A stretch of DNA of 63,363 nucleotides, counting the filler, from Collodictyon triciliatum (Eukaryota): assembly GCA_043381765.1 (NCBI GenBank). It is 15 parts of 15 records of this genome, joined end to end, with 100 filler letters (N's around TTAATTAATTAA, not from the genome) between each part and the next. Parts side by side here need not be neighbours in the genome. Positions count along the whole stretch, not along the records: positions 47,362 to 51,787 come from JBHJMP010006108.1; 14 more parts are not named here. One strand, written 5' to 3'. Positions 38,296 through 52,000 of the stretch are shown here, one piece after another. The notes beneath the pieces were generated by a model that saw nothing but the letters and a program-made list of their open reading frames with translations, had not been told where the DNA came from and did not search any database. Both the position numbers and the translations under genes were made by a program. The first letter of the stretch is position 1. Every line of letters starts with the position of its first letter.

Positions 38296-41200
38296 AATCA
38301 GCATGCGAGCTTTGTCAACCCGGTTCATATAATCCCAATATTGGCCAATTTTTTTGCATGAATTGTACTGATGGAACCTACAATCCAAAATTTGGTTCAA
38401 CAAGCAACACATCGTGTATTGAATGCCCCAAAGGGACTTATGGAAGTGAGCTAAGAGATGAATGCACATCATGCCCAGCTGGAACATTCAACAATAAAAC
38501 TGGCTCACATAACCAATCATCATGCATTTCATGTCCAAACGGAAGCTACAGCTCAGAAAGAAGCTCGTCATGCAGTTTATGCTTATCAGGATTCTATCAA
38601 AAAGAAGACATCACAAAAGATTCAAGCTCATGCTATACTTGTCCAAAAGGCACATTCAACTCAAACTCCGGCTCATATGGGTACAAATCATGTATTGAAT
38701 GTCCACAAGGCACTTGGAATGATAAAGATGGTCAAGCATCGTGTAAATCATGCCCAGCTGGTACATTTAACAATAAAACTGCATCAGATAATCAATCATC
38801 ATGTATTCCGTGTCCAAATGGAAGCTACAGCTCGGAAAGAAGCGCATCATGCTTTTCATGTTCACCAGGATTCTATCAAAAAGAGGTAGTCACAAAAGAC
38901 CAGAAATCATGCTATGCATGTCCAAAAGGTACATTCAACTCAAACTCCGGCTCATATGGATACAAATCATGTATTGAATGTCCACAAGGCACTTGGAATG
39001 ATAAAGATGGTCAAGCATCATGCACATCATGTCCAGCTGGTACATACAACAATAAAACTGGCTCATTTGATCAATCATCATGTATTCCGTGTCCAAATGG
39101 AAGCTACAGCTCAGAAAGAAGCGCATCATGTATCTCATGTTCACCAGGATTCTATCAAAAAGAGGGAATCATAAAAGACTCAAAATCATGCTACGCTTGT
39201 CCAAAAGGCACATTCAACTCAAATTTCGGCTCATATGGAAATGCATCATGCGTTGAATGTCCACAAGGTACTTGGAATGATAGAGATGGTCAAGCATCAT
39301 GTACATCATGCCCAGCTGGTACATTTAACAATAAAACTGGTTCATTCAACCAATTATCATGCATTCCATGTTCAAACGGAAGCTACAGCTCAGTTGGAAG
39401 CGCATCGTGTAGTTTATGTTTATCAGGATACTATCAAAAAGAGGTAGTCGCAAAAGACCAGAAATCATGCTATGCTTGTCCAAAAGGTACATTCAACTCA
39501 AATTTCGGTTCATATGGAAATACATCATGCATGGAATGTCCCCAAGGCACTTGGAATCATAGAGATGGTCAAGCATCATGCACATCGTGTCCAGCTGGTA
39601 CATTCAACGATAAAACCGGTTCAATTGAATTATCATGTATTACATGTCCAGATGGAAGCTACAGCACAGACAGAAGCGCATCTTGCAGCTCATGCTCATC
39701 AGGATACTATCAAAAAGAGGTAGTCGCAAAAGACCAGAAATCATGCTATGCTTGTCCAAAAGGTACATTCAACTCAAATTTCGGCTCATATGGCAATAAA
39801 TCTTGTGTTGAATGTCCACAAGGGACTTGGAATGATAGAAATGGTCAAGCATCATGCACATCATGTCCAGCTGGTACATTCAACAACAAAACGAGTTCAT
39901 TCAACCAGTCATCATGCATTTCATGCCCAGATGGAAGCTACAGCTCAGAAAGAAGCGCATCATGCAGCTTATGCTTATCAGGATTCTATCAAAAAGAAGG
40001 AATCATAAAAGACTCAAGCTCATGCCATACTTGTCCAAAAGGCACATTCAACTCAAATTTCGGTTTATATGGAGACAAATCATGTATTGAATGTCCACAA
40101 GGTACTTGGAATGATAGAGATGGCCAAGCATCATGCACATCGTGTCCAACCGGAACATTCAATAATAATACTGGCTCATTCAACCAATCATCATGCATTT
40201 CATGTCCAGATGGAAGCTATAGCTTATCTGGAAGCTCATCATGCAGCTTATGCTTATCAGGATTCTATCAAAAAGAGGGAATCATAAAAGACTCAAAATC
40301 ATGCTACGCTTGTCCAAAAGGCACATTCAACTCAAACTTCGGCTCATATGGAAATACATCATGCATGGAATGTCCACAAGGCACTTGGAATGATAGAGAT
40401 GGTCAAGCATCATGCACATCATGTCCGGCTGGTACATTCAACGATAAAACTGGGGCATTCAATCAATCATCATGCATTTCATGTCCGAATGGGAGCTACA
40501 GCTCAGAAAGAAGCGCATCATGCAGCTCTTGCTCATTAGGATTCTATCAAAAAGAAGGAATCATAAAAGACTCACAATCATGCTATGCTTGTCCAAATGG
40601 CACATTCAACTCAAACTCCGGCTCATATGGAAACACATCATGTATTGAATGTCCGCAAGGTACTTGGAATGATAGAGATGGCCAAGCATCATGCACGTCA
40701 TGTACAGCTGGTACATTCAACAATCAAACTGGCTCAGATAATCAATCATCATGCATTTCATGTCCAAACGGAAGCTACAGCTCAGAAAGAAGTGCATCAT
40801 GCAGTTTATGTTCACCAGGATTGTATCAAAAAGAAGATATCACAAAAGACTCCAAATCATGCTATGCTTGTCCAAAAGGCACATTCAACTCAAACTTCGG
40901 CTCATATGGAAACAAATCATGTATTGAATGTCCACAAGGTACTTGGAATGATAGAGATGGTCAAACATCATGCACATCATGTCCAGCTGGTACATTCAAT
41001 AATAGAACTGGCTCATTTAATCAATCATCATGCATTTCATGTCCGGATGGAAGCTACAGCTCAGAAAGAAGTGCATCATGCAGTTTATGTTCACCAGGAT
41101 TCTATCAAAAAGAAGGAATCACAAAAGACTCACAATCATGCTATGCTTGCCCAAAAGGCACATACAACTCCAACTCCGGCTCATATGGAAACAAATCATG

Positions 41201-42729
41201 TACTGAATGTCCACAAGGCACTTGGAATGATAAGGATGGTCAGGCATCATGCACATCATGTCCAGATGGGACATTCAACAATCAAACTGGCTCATTTAAT
41301 CAATCATCATGCATTTCATGTCCAAATGGAAGCTACAGCTCAGAAAGAAGTGCATCATGCAGTTTATGTTCACCAGGATTGTATCAAAAAGAAGGAATCA
41401 CAAAAGACTCAAAATCATGCTATGCTTGTCCAAATGGCACATTCAACTCAAACTCCGGCTCATATGGAAACGAATCATGTACTGAATGTCCACAAGGCAC
41501 TTGGAATGATAAGGATGGTCAGGCATCATGCACATCATGTCCAGTGGGTACATTCAACAATAAAACTGGCTCATTTAATCAATCATCATGCATTTCATGT
41601 CCGAATGGAAGCTACAGCTCAGAAAGAAGTGCATCATGCAGTTTATGTTCACCAGGATTGTATCAAAAAGAAGAAAACATAAAAGACTCAAAATCATGCT
41701 ACGCTTGTCCAAATGGCACATTAAACTCGAACTCCGGCTCATATGGAAACACATCATGTATTGAATGTCCACAAGGCACTTGGAATGATAAAGATAGTCA
41801 GGCATCATGCACATCATGTCCAGCTGGTACATTCAATAATAAAACTGGCTCATTCAATGTATTATCATGTATTTCATGTCCAAATGGAAGCTACAGTCCA
41901 GAAAGAAGCGTATCATGCAACTTGTGCTCACCAGGATTCTATCAAAAAGAGGGAATCAAAAAAGACTCGAAATCATGCTATGCTTGCCCAAAAGGCACAT
42001 TCAACTCAAACTCCGGCTCATATGGAAACAAATCATGTACTGAATGTCCACAAGGCACTTGGAATGATAGAGATGGCCAAGCATCATGCACATCATGTCC
42101 AGCTGGTACATTCAACAATAAAACTGGCTCATTTAATCAATCATCATGCATTTCATGTCCAAATGGAAGCTACAGCTCAGCTGGAAGTTCATCATGCTTT
42201 TCATGTTCACCAGGATTCTACCAAAGAGAAGGAATCATAAAAGATTCAAAATCATGCTATGCATGTCCAAAAGGCACACTCAACTCAAACTCCGGCTCAT
42301 ATGGAAACACATCGTGTATCGAATGTCCACAAGGTACTTGGAATGATAAAGATGGCCAGGCATCATGCACACCGTGTTCAGCTGGTACATACAACAATAA
42401 AACCGGCTCATTCAACCAATCATCATGTATTACATGTCCAGATGGAAGCTACAGCTCAGTTGGTGGCGCATCATGCAGCTTATGCTTATCAGGATTCTAT
42501 CAAAAAGAAAGTGTCATAAAAGACTCACAATCATGCTATGCTTGTCCAAATGGCACATTCAACTCAAACTCTGGCTCTCATGGAAACAAGTCATGCATTG
42601 GATGTCCCCAAGGCACTTGGAATGATAGAGATGGTCAAGCATCATGCACATCATGCCCAGCTGGTACATTCAACAACAAAACGAGTTCATTCAACCAATC
42701 ATCATGCATTTCATGTTCAAATGGAAGCT
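38296..42729 (+). CDS. Giant Cys-rich repeat surface protein (GCC2/GCC3, ephrin-receptor-like CPxGT repeats), partial at both ends
   Basis: Open frame across the whole scaffold; about 15 copies of a 93-aa/279-bp unit with 10 Cys and many N-x-S/T sites. Confidence 0.92.
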
Positions 42730-47261: not shown

Positions 47262-48332
47262 NNNNNNNNNNNNNNNNNNNNNNNNNNNNNNNNNNNNNNN
47301 NNNNNTTAATTAATTAANNNNNNNNNNNNNNNNNNNNNNNNNNNNNNNNNNNNNNNNNNNNTGTTTGTTTTTTCTGTTTGTTTTTTCTGTTTGTTTTTTC
47401 TGTTTGTTTTTTCTGTTTGTTTTTTCTGTTTGTTTTTTCTGTTTGTTTTTTCTTTTTCTTTTTCCTTTCCTTTTCTTTTTTCCTTTTCTTTTTTCCTTTT
47501 CTTTTTTCCTTTTCTTTTTTCCTTTTCTTTTTTCCTTTTCTTTTTTCCTTTCCTTTTTCTCCTTTCCTTTTTCTCCTTTTTTCCTTTTTCTCCTTTTTTC
47601 CTTTTTTTTTCCTTTCCTTTCTTTTTCTTTTTCTTTTTTCATTTTTTCATTTTTTTCTTTTTTTTCGGTCTTATTCAGCCTGTAAATGAATAAACTTCAT
47701 TACAAATGTTGTGACGAACTTGGTTTTATCCCTTTCAAGGCACATCACTTTTTATACAACGAAAGTGTACCCATACAATCCAATCTATTGCACAGACGAC
47801 CATCGAATTAAATCTGGGTTGACAAAAGCAGGAGCTTTGATGAATCCAAGAAACAACCAGAATAATATAAAAGTATGATTAGTATATATAATAAGATTAA
47901 AAATGCTTAAAAATCATTCTATTCCTGTAATCAATTTATATTTTATTATCCATTATACAATATTATCATTAAAATTCAAAGATGACAAACAAGCCCTTGC
48001 GTTGGCCCAGACAGAACCCAGTCTATAAACCTGCCACCAAACATGCATTTCAAAAAAAGCATAATGTCCACACTTGCGGCGGTAATCATGTTGTTTGGGG
48101 CCGATATGTTGACTTTCAGCCACAATGGCTATACGGCCGTCCTTTCCAACTCGCCGAATCGGCTCGGCGTTTTGTCTCAAATCACTTGCATAAAAAACTT
48201 TGAGTGTTTGTTTGCCACAAAGCGCATGTTTTGAAAGTCTCGGTAGATGCTTAATTTTACATAAATTGATTTTTGCAGTTTTTTAATTGAGTAATTGACT
48301 TAAGATTTACTGAAATTGAAAACTCGGTAGTT

Positions 48333-50269
48333 TTCTAAAGGAAAAAGTAAAACAAAGACTTCCAGACGAAGAAAAGAAAACGTTTTGAGTCTGAGAATCT
48401 AAAGTCTGTAAAACCACACTGTCGTAATCTGAAAACATCTCTAAAGTCGATTGTAAAGAATGTGGATGACTATTACAAAAAACGATACGGTTTTATTGTG
48501 TCATAATTTGGTCACCGAAATTTAACTGTTTGCGGGATGTTACGTATTGAAATCACAACAACTCCCAACAATCGGTGAAATGCTTTTTTTGTACGCTTTA
48601 AAGACAGTCGAAACAGTTTCATGTGATAGAACCCGCAAGATTTTAAAAAAAAACCAGATATGAGAGATGCCATGATGACTTTTTATCTCTACGATTTTCG
48701 ATTCCTTTTGTCCCAAGAAGAACGCTTTCCGTTGGTTAGACTGCCTCATACATTACCGTACTTGGCGAAGCAAATGCTAACAGCTTACCATAATAACATT
48801 AAGGAGCATGTCGTAAAGAGGTTACTACGCTTTATAAACCAAACAGTTCCTAAATATGAGAATATTACGGAAGCTATTAAAAAGCCAGAGTTACGAAAGT
48901 TAAAAAGTCATCTTCAAGAATCTCGAAATACCGGAACAATATAAAGAATGGGCTATACTCCATTTGCATCTTATCATTCCCGGCGATATTGTAAAAGGTA
49001 TAGAATATGACGTCAAAGTCCACCAAATAAGTACATTCCATGTCTGATTTACATGAATCGCATTTTTGGGGACATTAGAGCCAAAAATTTTCAACCAATT
49101 TCTATAATAACTAATTATGTAATATGATATATTACTCTAGATAATGCATGTTTGATAGGTCTATTAGTATTGTCTGGAAAAATATCATTACTGAAGAATA
49201 TATCAGGATGCATAGAAACACTATGGTTTGATTTCTTTGAAATGAAGAAGAGAGTCTTTCATCAAAGAGACTACAATTTTAAATACATGATACAAACAGA
49301 CGGCTTGGCGGGGTCATTATTGTTTGAAAAGAAAGGCATTTCAATTCAAAATTCCAATATAACAACAACAAAAAAAAACTAGAATATGTTTATATAGATG
49401 AACTTTCCGAAGAGCAGTTATCTTCATTAGCGACAAAAAATAAAATAAAAAATAACATAGTTTAATGGATGCACGCAACTTTAATCTGGTTTACATGGTG
49501 GATGAGACAGGTAAGAAATTCCGTTTCATGGCGCACCAAAGACATGATAGCAAACCTCTTAAAAATCACAAAATACTCTTGTGCGAAAAAAAAAGGTAAA
49601 GTAAAATGCTTCAGGGATATGCATAGCAACAGATTTACAAAGTGCTGTTTATTTTGGTGCCATGACTTTTGAAGAGAGTCAGCGGTTTGAGACATCAAGA
49701 GTATCTTTAATCGATTTAGAGACAGAACTGAGTAAACATAATTCATGCATGGTCGATTATGAAAAATTTCGAAAATATGTATCTATGAAATCAAGATACC
49801 AGATAGAATTATCCATATTTTATGAACAAGTAACTTTTCGAAAGATGAGATGGAGACAGTATTGTTAATACAAAAAGAAGTTAGCAATTGTTTATGGTCC
49901 GAATCGAAAAGACATTTGGCAAGGATGTTGTACTGGTGAATGGAGAGTGGAGCAGAAAATGTCGATGAACCATCTTATGCCAACAATCGGAAGAGGATTA
50001 CGAAAAATACAATCCAAACATTTTGAAACAGTTACCGTGGATGAATTTAGAACCTCCAAAATGTGCTGCAACTGCGAAAAAGAACTGAAATATATGAAGC
50101 CGAAAGGAAACTCAAAAAAAAAAAGGTGTTTAGATGTCTCATATGTAAAGAATGCAATCGCCCAGAAAGCAAACAAAGAGTATTTTTGACAAGGGACTTT
50201 AACAGCGCTAATCGTATGCTCAAGAAAGTTCTTTTTATCTTTCAAAGAATGCATACACCTTTCTCTTAA
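48333..50269 (+). pseudogene. Fanzor1 (TnpB-like RNA-guided RuvC endonuclease), frameshifted
   Basis: Collinear fragments across frames: KTSLKSIV; LPYLAKQMLTAYHNNIKEH..LLRFIN; IEYDVKV; ITLDNACLI; IQTDGLAGSLLF; RuvC-I D (MDARNFNLVYM, 49468); FRKMRWRQY; GEW..MNHLMPTIGRGLRK; RuvC-II VDEFRTSKMCCNC (E at 50043); CKEC; RuvC-III TRDFNSANRM (D at 50195). Several stops and frameshifts. Confidence 0.9.
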
Positions 50270-50281
50270 AAAAAAAAAAAT

Positions 50282-50416
50282 AGGCTGTCGGGTCTTTCCA
50301 GGCAGCCTTCACCACTACATAATCTTTGTGAAAAAAGTGGTGAGACCTTGGATACTAGCGCACCAGGTTTACCAATCGAAAGATTGGCATACCCCTTCTA
50401 GTAGTGAAACAAACGA
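50282..50416 (+). ncRNA. Predicted Fanzor omegaRNA scaffold plus guide
   Basis: Immediately downstream of the Fanzor stop. Stems at 50282-50289/50301-50308, 50309-50316/50336-50343, 50345-50351/50363-50368 and 50372-50377/50382-50387 (GAAA loop). The loop sequence TACTAG (50353-50358) is complementary to CTAGTA (50398-50403). Confidence 0.65.
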
Positions 50417-50710
50417 GTCTAAATGATTTCCAAATATGTCATTTAGACAAGTGAAGAAACAAGAAAACAAACTGAAAAGGACTTATCGTTCTGTCAGTTG
50501 AACTGCGCCCGCGACTCCCAACGACCCGCCAAATACCCGGCCAAAGCACCAAACGGCGCCCGCCGCAGCAGTCCCCGGACTGTGTCTAAGTCTACGAACA
50601 TTTGTCCCAAAGCCGCCTCCGCAAACTCTCCACTCTGCTTCCTCAGTCGCGTTCAACATTCTCAACCACGCATACAATTCATATACGTGCGCATGCGAAC
50701 AAAGCTAAGG

Positions 50711-51628
50711 ATGAGCAATCACTACCCTGCACACTCGCCAAAAATCCCTGCCATCTCGATCTGCACAAGCCTCGATTGCGAGTCGCCCGTCAGCGAGGAC
50801 GACCCTGCCAGCAACGTACTCTCGCCAGACCCAAACGACCGAAGCACTGAAAAGCCGCCTGCTGAGGAATCAGGAACCGCATGCTCTCGCGCCGACGCTC
50901 AGGCAATCAATGCGGACAAGCTTGAAGTTGCAAAGCAGAGTGGGAACTTGTCAAAGTCCTTCTCTGAGACATTTTTTCCTCTATCCTCCAAGCCACCAGC
51001 GGAACAGATGCCGTCTCAGATTACCATTACCCTTTCCTCACAAAGTTTCACACAAGCAAAGACCCAAACGCAAGCGCAAACGCAAACACGCCATAAGTCG
51101 CCCATCAGAGTCCCGATTGTCCTGCCGCCACCTCGCGAGAGAACAAAGAGTCGCATGGAGGAGTTTGAGAGACTTTCGCAGATGATGGCCCAGCAGCCGT
51201 CAAACTCATATACTAACTCCCATCCGCCTTTGATCCGCAGAAACTCATCTGTGCCATCGATAGTCGAGAGTCTTGCAGCAAAGTCTAGCGATGAAAAGTC
51301 TGAATTGACGGCTCCGTGGCCAATGGCCAGGCCACCAGACCCGCGTACCGGTCACAGGGAATCAGTGGAATCAAAGACCAAAAATGAGACTGCGAATCAG
51401 CCGGTGATGAGGGTATACACATCAGGTATTGCATCGTCAGTTCTGCCATCTATCAGCCGAAAATCGCCCGCTCAAAAGGCAGAGTGCGGTGACTTTTCGG
51501 TGTTCGCTGTGGACAGGGAATCTTTTCATTTTGATGTTACGGACGTGTCGAATATGAGCCAGTACATGCCAAAGATGCTTATTCGTAGCTTGGTGCGAAA
51601 CCCTACGTCGAGGCATTATGCTCAACAG
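50711..51628 (+). CDS. First exon of a protein with a long Ser/Pro-rich disordered N-terminus; function unknown
   Basis: Long open frame (50498-51631) with coding-like composition, ending at a GTGAGT donor. The ATG at 50711 is the assumed start. Confidence 0.6.
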
Positions 51629-51705
51629 TGAGTTACAATATTTTGCTGCATTTTTTCTTTTTTCTTTTCTTTTTCTTTTTCTTTTTCTTTTTCTTTTTCT
51701 TTTTC

Positions 51706-51739
<34 letters not shown>

Positions 51740-52000
51740 CTTTTCTTTTTTCTTTTCTTTTTTCTTTTCTTTTTTCTTTTCTTTTTTNNNNNNNNNNNNN
51801 NNNNNNNNNNNNNNNNNNNNNNNNNNNNNNNTTAATTAATTAANNNNNNNNNNNNNNNNNNNNNNNNNNNNNNNNNNNNNNNNNNNNTTTTGTTATTTTG
51901 TTGGTTCTACAAATCTTTAACTTTTATTTTTCTTTTTTTTTTTTTTTGTTTTTTTTTTAATACCTAATTTTTTTTCATACATGATTCAATCGGCCTTAAG

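Follow-up and report, generated by a model that had tools for sequence, protein, structure and literature searches.

We analysed a window of 63,363 nt from Collodictyon triciliatum (GenBank assembly GCA_043381765.1), in which an earlier note, made by reading the sequence, had placed a relic of a Fanzor1 RNA-guided nuclease split over many small open reading frames (ORFs). The window is divided by 14 linkers of the form N44-TTAATTAATTAA-N44 between 2478 and 59043 (for example at 47262-47361 and 51788-51887) into pieces that are mostly ~4.4 kb long, and TTAATTAATTAA gives a stop codon in six frames out of six. Chaining unplaced contigs via such all-frame-stop linkers is usual practice. The window is therefore a chain of separate contigs, so that adjacency across a linker is artificial and the genes on its two sides are not neighbours. 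The relic lies on a contig of 4426 nt (47362..51787; record JBHJMP010006108.1) bounded by two of the linkers. Frameshift-aware alignment, tblastn and hhalign located a Fanzor1 pseudogene at 48366..50340 on the + strand, and our analysis leaves little doubt that it is a dead, non-functional copy of a Fanzor1 gene. Fanzor1 proteins are RNA-guided DNA-cutting enzymes that are carried by transposons in eukaryotes and giant viruses.

Homology to Fanzor1 and anatomy of the relic

In the following, P-numbers denote protein relatives of the relic and L-numbers denote loci on IMG/VR viral contigs. Translation of 49605-50189 in frame 0, with X in place of one TAA, gave the query P0001, which had 560 matches at E ≤ 1e-3 among 1.84 billion proteins, 77 of them at E ≤ 1e-10; many were 600–700 aa long and were matched around residues ~415–560. 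From the best 150 of the 560 matches, 77 proteins of at least 560 aa were drawn as tblastn queries. Every high-scoring segment pair between these full-length queries and the window fell within 48000-50400, and the eight best queries were colinear with the relic across three frames. P0005 (634 aa) matched the relic with E-values of 7e-34 and 2e-28. Three single-frame pieces of the relic were compared with a 40-sequence family profile by hhalign and gave E-values of 8e-31, 4e-12 and 6e-15, the pieces 48630-48944 and 49128-49382 corresponding to profile columns 88-173 and 248-321. By these comparisons, the similarity of the relic to the family is far beyond chance. No other copy of the relic was found within the window by blastn or tblastn, and no match to it was found in the phage collection by tblastn. 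The metagenome scan with P0001 gave no match, and that with P0002 gave three loci at 39% only.

Among the PDB sequences, the 40-sequence profile matched three solved Fanzor1 proteins over their full length, namely PpFz1 (7.5e-103), SpuFz1 (8.1e-100) and GtFz1 (1.5e-76). Profile positions 6-602 match SpuFz1 (E 8e-100), the long N-terminal half being colinear with that of the solved Fanzor1. There were five PDB matches at E ≤ 1e-3, and beyond the three Fanzor1 proteins these were two LaTranC chains, matched in the zinc-ribbon part only; no Fanzor2, TnpB or Cas12 was matched at that threshold. The intact relative P0162 on its own matched GtFz1 (2e-28), PpFz1 (3e-24) and SpuFz1 (4e-23). An AlphaFold model of P0162, built from a 41-row alignment, had a predicted local distance difference test (pLDDT) score of 82.7 and a predicted template modelling (TM) score of 0.81. 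Its seven best PDB matches were all SpuFz1, PpFz1 or GtFz1, with query-normalised TM scores of 0.61-0.73. Against SpuFz1 the model scored a TM of 0.72/0.77 (E 1.7e-27), as compared with 0.22 for mimivirus Fanzor2 and 0.26 for ISDra2 TnpB. The lineage of the relic thus has the Fanzor1 fold, and the assignment made in the earlier note is supported by the frameshift-aware alignment, by the profile match and by the TM of 0.72 to SpuFz1.

The solved Fanzor1 proteins (SpuFz1, PDB 8GKH and 9CEU-9CEZ; PpFz1, 9CF0-3; GtFz1, 9CER-T; Saito et al. 2023, PMC10432273) have the same layout of Asp, repositioned Glu and Asp together with a C4 zinc ribbon, at ~20% sequence identity to P0162 in the fold alignment. 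They differ in that the lineage of the relic has an extra disordered loop and in that the relic is a dead gene. For the solved proteins, unlike for the relic, both activity and an omega-RNA have been demonstrated. Fanzor2 (ApmFz2, PDB 9B0L) and TnpB (ISDra2, 8H1J) belong to a superfamily in common with the relic (RuvC and zinc ribbon, RNA-guided) but, unlike Fanzor1, are without the long N-terminal half.

The lesions were mapped with a protein-to-DNA alignment script that allows frameshifts, under ad hoc penalties (gap −4, frameshift −12, stop −8). With P0162 (648 aa) as the guide, residues 2-642 aligned to 48369-50319 with 387 of 621 aligned pairs identical. Eleven frameshifts were placed, near 48474, 48653, 48909, 49022, 49345, 49467, 49607, 49863, 49961, 50125 and 50262, and six in-frame stops at 48523, 49125, 49463, 49597, 49882 and 50281. 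The P0005 guide aligned over its residues 2-627 to 48372-50356 and called for 10 frameshifts and 7 stops. The ORF of P0162 is unbroken, whereas the relic is interrupted ~17 times and reads ACG at the position of its start codon (Met1, 48366-68). Because of the lost start codon, ~11 frameshifts and 6 stops, the relic cannot make protein. The extent that had been proposed for it held broadly, but homology starts at 48369 and, with the P0162 guide, passes the stop at 50267 to ~50319. Its fragmentation over many frames was likewise recovered, but with more frame switches than the list of ORFs had implied.

In spite of this decay the catalytic triad and the D-E-C4-D layout can still be read from a residue map against P0005, as had been claimed. 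The motifs that the earlier note had named (IQTDG, the Asp at 49468, FRKMRWRQY, PTIGRGLRK, DEFRTSKMCCNC, CKEC and TRDFNS) were all found where it had put them, and all features below are on the + strand. The translation begins with a basic patch, KKRKR (48369..48383), which is a candidate nuclear localisation signal; N-terminal signals of this kind in Fanzors were demonstrated experimentally by Jiang et al. 2023 (PMC10530073). The TDG of IQTDG (49296..49304) occupies columns that are nearly invariant in the family. The RuvC-I catalytic Asp (49468..49470) aligned with D372 of P0005, where D372 and P373 are nearly invariant, and the DPG around it has decayed to DAR in the relic. DPG is given as the RuvC-I motif of Fanzors and pro-Fanzors by Yoon et al. 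2023 (PMC10711439). FRKMRWRQY lies at 49839-65. At the canonical RuvC-II site, G-E-W (49942..49950) aligned with G496 and W498 of P0005, G and W being conserved columns. GEW is present in two frames of the relic by coincidence, and only the frame-1 occurrence at 49942-50 is homologous. VDEFRTSK contains the repositioned, or alternative, RuvC-II Glu (50043..50045), which is also the Glu of the DEFRTSKMCCNC motif and which falls in the invariant E530 column of P0005. According to Jiang et al. 2023 (PMC10530073), Fanzors have no catalytic Glu at the canonical RuvC-II position and an alternative Glu ~45 residues downstream, and such a repositioned arrangement is also described for Fanzors by Yoon et al. 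2023 (PMC10711439).

The C4 zinc ribbon (50064..50155) has Cys at 50064 and 50073 and then at 50144 and 50153 (CKEC), and is interrupted by a frameshift at the A11 run 50114-50124. The RuvC-III catalytic Asp in TRDFNS (50195..50197) aligned with the invariant D581 of P0005; the RD.N motif is present as R 50192, D 50195 and N 50201, corresponding to R580, D581 and N583. Five columns are invariant in the family (Y, R, G, E and D), and the relic retains them all, as well as the RuvC-I Asp, TS and the four Cys. The Fanzor motif of Bao and Jurka (PMC3627910) is D-X(125,275)-[TS][TS]-X-X-C4 zinc finger-X(5,50)-RD. In P0162, 194 residues lie between D364 and T558, and the relic reads TS-KM-C, CxxC...CxxC and then 12 residues to RD, the motif being broken by the frameshift at 50125.

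Repeat family, decay and the 3′ region

Four sequencing runs were aligned to 48300-50400, of which two, X1 and X9, are labelled as organisms and the two others are metagenomes. X1 gave 327 and X9 330 short contigs on this interval at 85-99% identity, with all 30 bins covered. By identity bands of 99+, 95-99, 90-95 and <90, the numbers of contigs were 28, 91, 126 and 82 in X1 and 18, 97, 138 and 77 in X9. The metagenome runs gave 96 and 52 contigs. At ~200 nt per contig, we estimate about thirty-fold tiling by distinct variants. This indicates that the repeat family of the relic consists of dozens of diverged copies, and the multi-copy status argues for past mobility.

Other copies are unbroken at many lesion sites of the relic, near 48480, 48523, 48909, 49022, 49125, 49602, 49862, 49882, 49961 and 50119: they have bases more or fewer than the relic at 48480, 49022 and 49862, sense codons at 48523-25 and 49882-84, and a different reading at 48906, 49129, 49593, 49964 and 50119. 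This tally of lesions absent elsewhere is a lower bound, since it was taken from the best-supported rows, with 532 and 70 further rows outside. The relic decayed after insertion, on its own. In line with the earlier note, public data contain an intact relative, P0162, and these other copies of the family are free of many lesions of the relic. Among the public sequencing runs, none contained at least half of the words of the relic stretch, and no RNA run was listed for it.

The 3′ tail of the relic and the sequence downstream of it (50270..50447, + strand) contain several hairpins and are a candidate remnant of an omega-RNA scaffold and of the element end. The depth of the repeat family persists to 50400. 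An Rfam search of the 3′ region gave nothing above threshold, only RcsR1 at chance level (E 0.26). A hairpin with an 11-bp stem at 50416-50447 (+) stands at the end of this structured region, directly before an ORF at 50447-51631, and could mark the end of the element.

Lineage and relation to giant viruses

P0162 and P0164, two 648-aa proteins without a name, are encoded on metagenome contigs of ~2.6 kb from ENA and JGI. P0162 shares with the relic the KKRKR start, the motif strings and an insertion of ~34 residues after RuvC-I, and the full-length proteins that come next to it in similarity are at 46% identity. All listed relatives from P0162 to P0282 bear the precomputed label PF26935.1; our local Pfam search of P0162 gave no family. 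The insertion (49593..49697, + strand), which carries a frameshift and a stop in the relic, is common to the relic, P0162, P0002, P0003 and P0017, with similar residues read as protein. It is absent from the viral clade described below and is without a counterpart in P0005 (~90 nt). In the model of P0162 it forms a low-confidence loop (pLDDT <50 at residues 412-439).

Four IMG/VR contigs, 57-254 kb long, carry copies of P0005 at 80-88% identity (L001-L004), and there is one more copy at 49%. L001 (3637-6952) and L003 (3630-6952) are intact 3.3-kb elements with a divergent DDE_3+HTH transposase and Fanzor1 back to back, between inverted ends of 32-33 nt that are 100% and 97% complementary. Their viral-looking flanks differ: one has a ribonucleotide reductase (RNR) small subunit and DUF5755, the other an mRNA capping enzyme and a helicase. 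Four other relatives were probed for viral copies, which were found at 92% (P0020), 79% (P0047), 56% (P0100) and only 37% (P0160) identity. By tblastn, all 87 long relatives matched a set of 31 viral loci, 5 of them at ≥75%, 6 at 50-75% and 76 at <50% identity. Six peptide probes from P0162 found no relative in the IMG/VR viral contigs.

Three trees were built, all of them midpoint-rooted only and with most rows without a taxon label. The first was a FastTree tree of 93 rows. The second was made by IQ-TREE in quick mode under LG+G4 with 46 rows, namely 34 hand-picked from the 87 relatives, the relic and 11 viral rows; L006 (same gene as L007), L025 (too short) and L003 and L004 (identical to L002) were left out. 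The third added P0162 and P0002 to that set. In all three, the relic adjoined a clade of L001, L002, P0005, P0153, P0156 and P0160. In the third tree, the Shimodaira–Hasegawa-like approximate likelihood ratio test (SH-aLRT) gave 89 for the relic with P0162, 99 on adding P0002, and 93 (not starred) for this trio as sister to the L001/L002 clade. The viral rows were scattered over every major clade, with 9 changes for 11 rows. The relic is not nested with support inside the viral clade and is not near-identical to a viral copy, its identity to the nearest viral protein being ~43%.

On these sequence comparisons, the likeness to giant-virus Fanzors named in the earlier note is real at the level of the clade, which holds L001-L004. 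The exchange between virus and host that it drew from this likeness can be upheld as no more than plausible, as the relic trio is sister to the viral clade, in unrooted trees, rather than nested in it. Nor is the suggestion new. The intermingling of viral and eukaryotic Fanzor1, with possible spread by viruses, is already proposed by Bao and Jurka 2013 (PMC3627910). In our trees, the sister clade of the relic's lineage holds giant-virus Mariner-type Fanzor1 elements (L001 and L003). They have a transposase and inverted ends, neither of which was found on the contig of the relic.

A further proposal, which is possible but which we hold as doubtful, is that a Fanzor1 sub-lineage so far undescribed, with the disordered insertion as its mark, comprises the relic, P0162 and P0002, has amplified to dozens of copies in a freshwater eukaryote and retains live members such as the intact P0162. 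If so, it would, as the sister group of the giant-virus Mariner-type Fanzor1 elements, record a transfer between virus and eukaryote, and it would provide a new natural nuclease to test.

Proposed origin, rival explanations and surroundings

The progenitor of the relic would have been an RNA-guided double-strand DNA endonuclease of ~650 residues, of the TnpB/Cas12 superfamily. Its features would have been a basic patch at the N-terminus, an N-terminal half resembling REC, a RuvC domain in separate segments (Asp, repositioned Glu, Asp) and a C4 zinc ribbon. Its presumed partner was an omega-RNA to which the last part of the gene and the flank downstream contributed, and it was probably carried as a passenger in a DNA transposon. 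The relic itself is one member of a multi-copy repeat family of the host; it has lost its start codon and decayed after insertion.

Several results weigh against this account. The lesion counts, which come from our script with its ad hoc penalties, are estimates that vary with the guide protein, and three to four of the 11 frameshifts are at or beside runs of A9-A13 (48653, 49607, 50125 and 50262) and may be slippage or assembly errors. No public run contains the whole stretch, so that the lesions of this exact copy are given as they stand in the assembly. On the contig of the relic we found neither terminal inverted repeats nor a target-site duplication, the repeat searches giving low-complexity matches only, and no transposase was found there by Pfam or by tblastn with viral DDE_3 proteins (best E 1.3). 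As for the omega-RNA, the fold of 50150-50450 has a modest z-score against shuffles (−3.6 on the + strand), and the minus strand also folds well (−2.6). In a Pfam search of eight pieces of the relic, only one matched Cas12f1-like_TNB, below threshold (E 0.0018; 18.8 bits, where the cut-off is 26.3). Five of eight relatives matched the same family at E ≤ 0.01, and one of the eight was above the curated cut-off. A search by Pfam only would not have detected the relic.

The frameshifts at A runs bear on the view that the gene is alive, its breaks being introns together with assembly errors in homopolymers, so that the locus yields a working Fanzor1. Introns do occur in eukaryotic Fanzor genes, as stated by Jiang et al. 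2023 (PMC10530073), and a GT...AG interval of 83 nt at 49596-49678 preserves the frame. As an intron, however, this interval was rejected: P0162, P0002, P0003 and P0017 read the segment as protein, and since 49593-49697 is protein-coding in these relatives, it is a coding insertion and a mark of the lineage. No homopolymer adjoins the stops at 48523, 49125 and 49882, which are simple substitutions of codons that are sense codons in other copies. Moreover, all three frames are closed at 48504-48525 with no AG acceptor before ~48600, and the start position reads ACG. We therefore regard a living gene at this locus as highly improbable.

Scarcely more probable is that the relic came in with viral DNA, as part of a giant-virus genome integrated into the host, rather than as a host transposon copy. 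The sister clade does include giant-virus contigs of 57-254 kb, with L001-L004 at 80-88% identity to P0005 and with the mRNA capping enzyme, RNR small subunit and DUF5755 in the flanks of L001 and L003. Viral rows occur in every major clade of the trees, and Fanzor elements integrated with viruses are reported from Ectocarpus by Bao and Jurka (PMC3627910). But the 4.4-kb contig of the relic contains no further recognisable viral gene, and many copies at 85-99% identity fit a transposon burst better than a single integration. The identity of the relic to the nearest viral protein is low (~43%), and P0162 had no IMG/VR relative with its six peptide probes. The core of the terminal inverted repeat of the viral element had no match in the window at ≤3 mismatches. 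We retain the decayed copy of a Fanzor1 gene, probably transposon-borne, as the explanation.

The relic is a real fossil of a known family, which had been correctly located and named. The Fanzor transposon family has been known since 2013, and its role as an RNA-guided nuclease was shown in 2023. By itself the relic matters little, as decayed copies are an expected by-product of a known transposon family. It is of some modest value because it pointed the way to P0162, an intact 648-aa relative whose loop is specific to the lineage, and to a multi-copy family with less damaged members. It also adds a eukaryotic branch next to giant-virus Fanzor1. Each of these could be of use for catalogues of natural Fanzor diversity or for the study of gene flow between viruses and hosts.

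Both ends of the contig (47362-51787) lie in pyrimidine-rich microsatellite arrays, with the repeat family D1 at 47370-47684 and 51615-51787. Just upstream of the relic, at 47973-48234 (+), there is a string that we took to resemble the KHGGG..WG of a Tc1-type transposase ('KH..GG..VVWG'). As a Tc1-like transposase it was unsupported by Pfam, PDB sequences or viral transposases, and in the protein atlas the best score was 0.81, for an opposite-strand ORF. The ORF at 50447-51631 (+) has 394 codons, is rich in Ser, Pro and Gln, has a G+C content above that of the relic and begins directly 3′ of the 3′ region of the repeat. It gave no family in a Pfam search and no homologue at E ≤ 1e-3, and may be a host exon or an artefact of composition. 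Elsewhere in the window, other contigs carry LRR genes and exons of RRM, oxysterol-binding and proteasome-ATPase proteins, and these genes show that the assembly is eukaryotic. A separate contig carries, at 38298-42728 (+), a single open frame of 1477 residues with 33 Ephrin-receptor-like repeats and with matches to NCD3G and to TNFR-type cysteine-rich domains.

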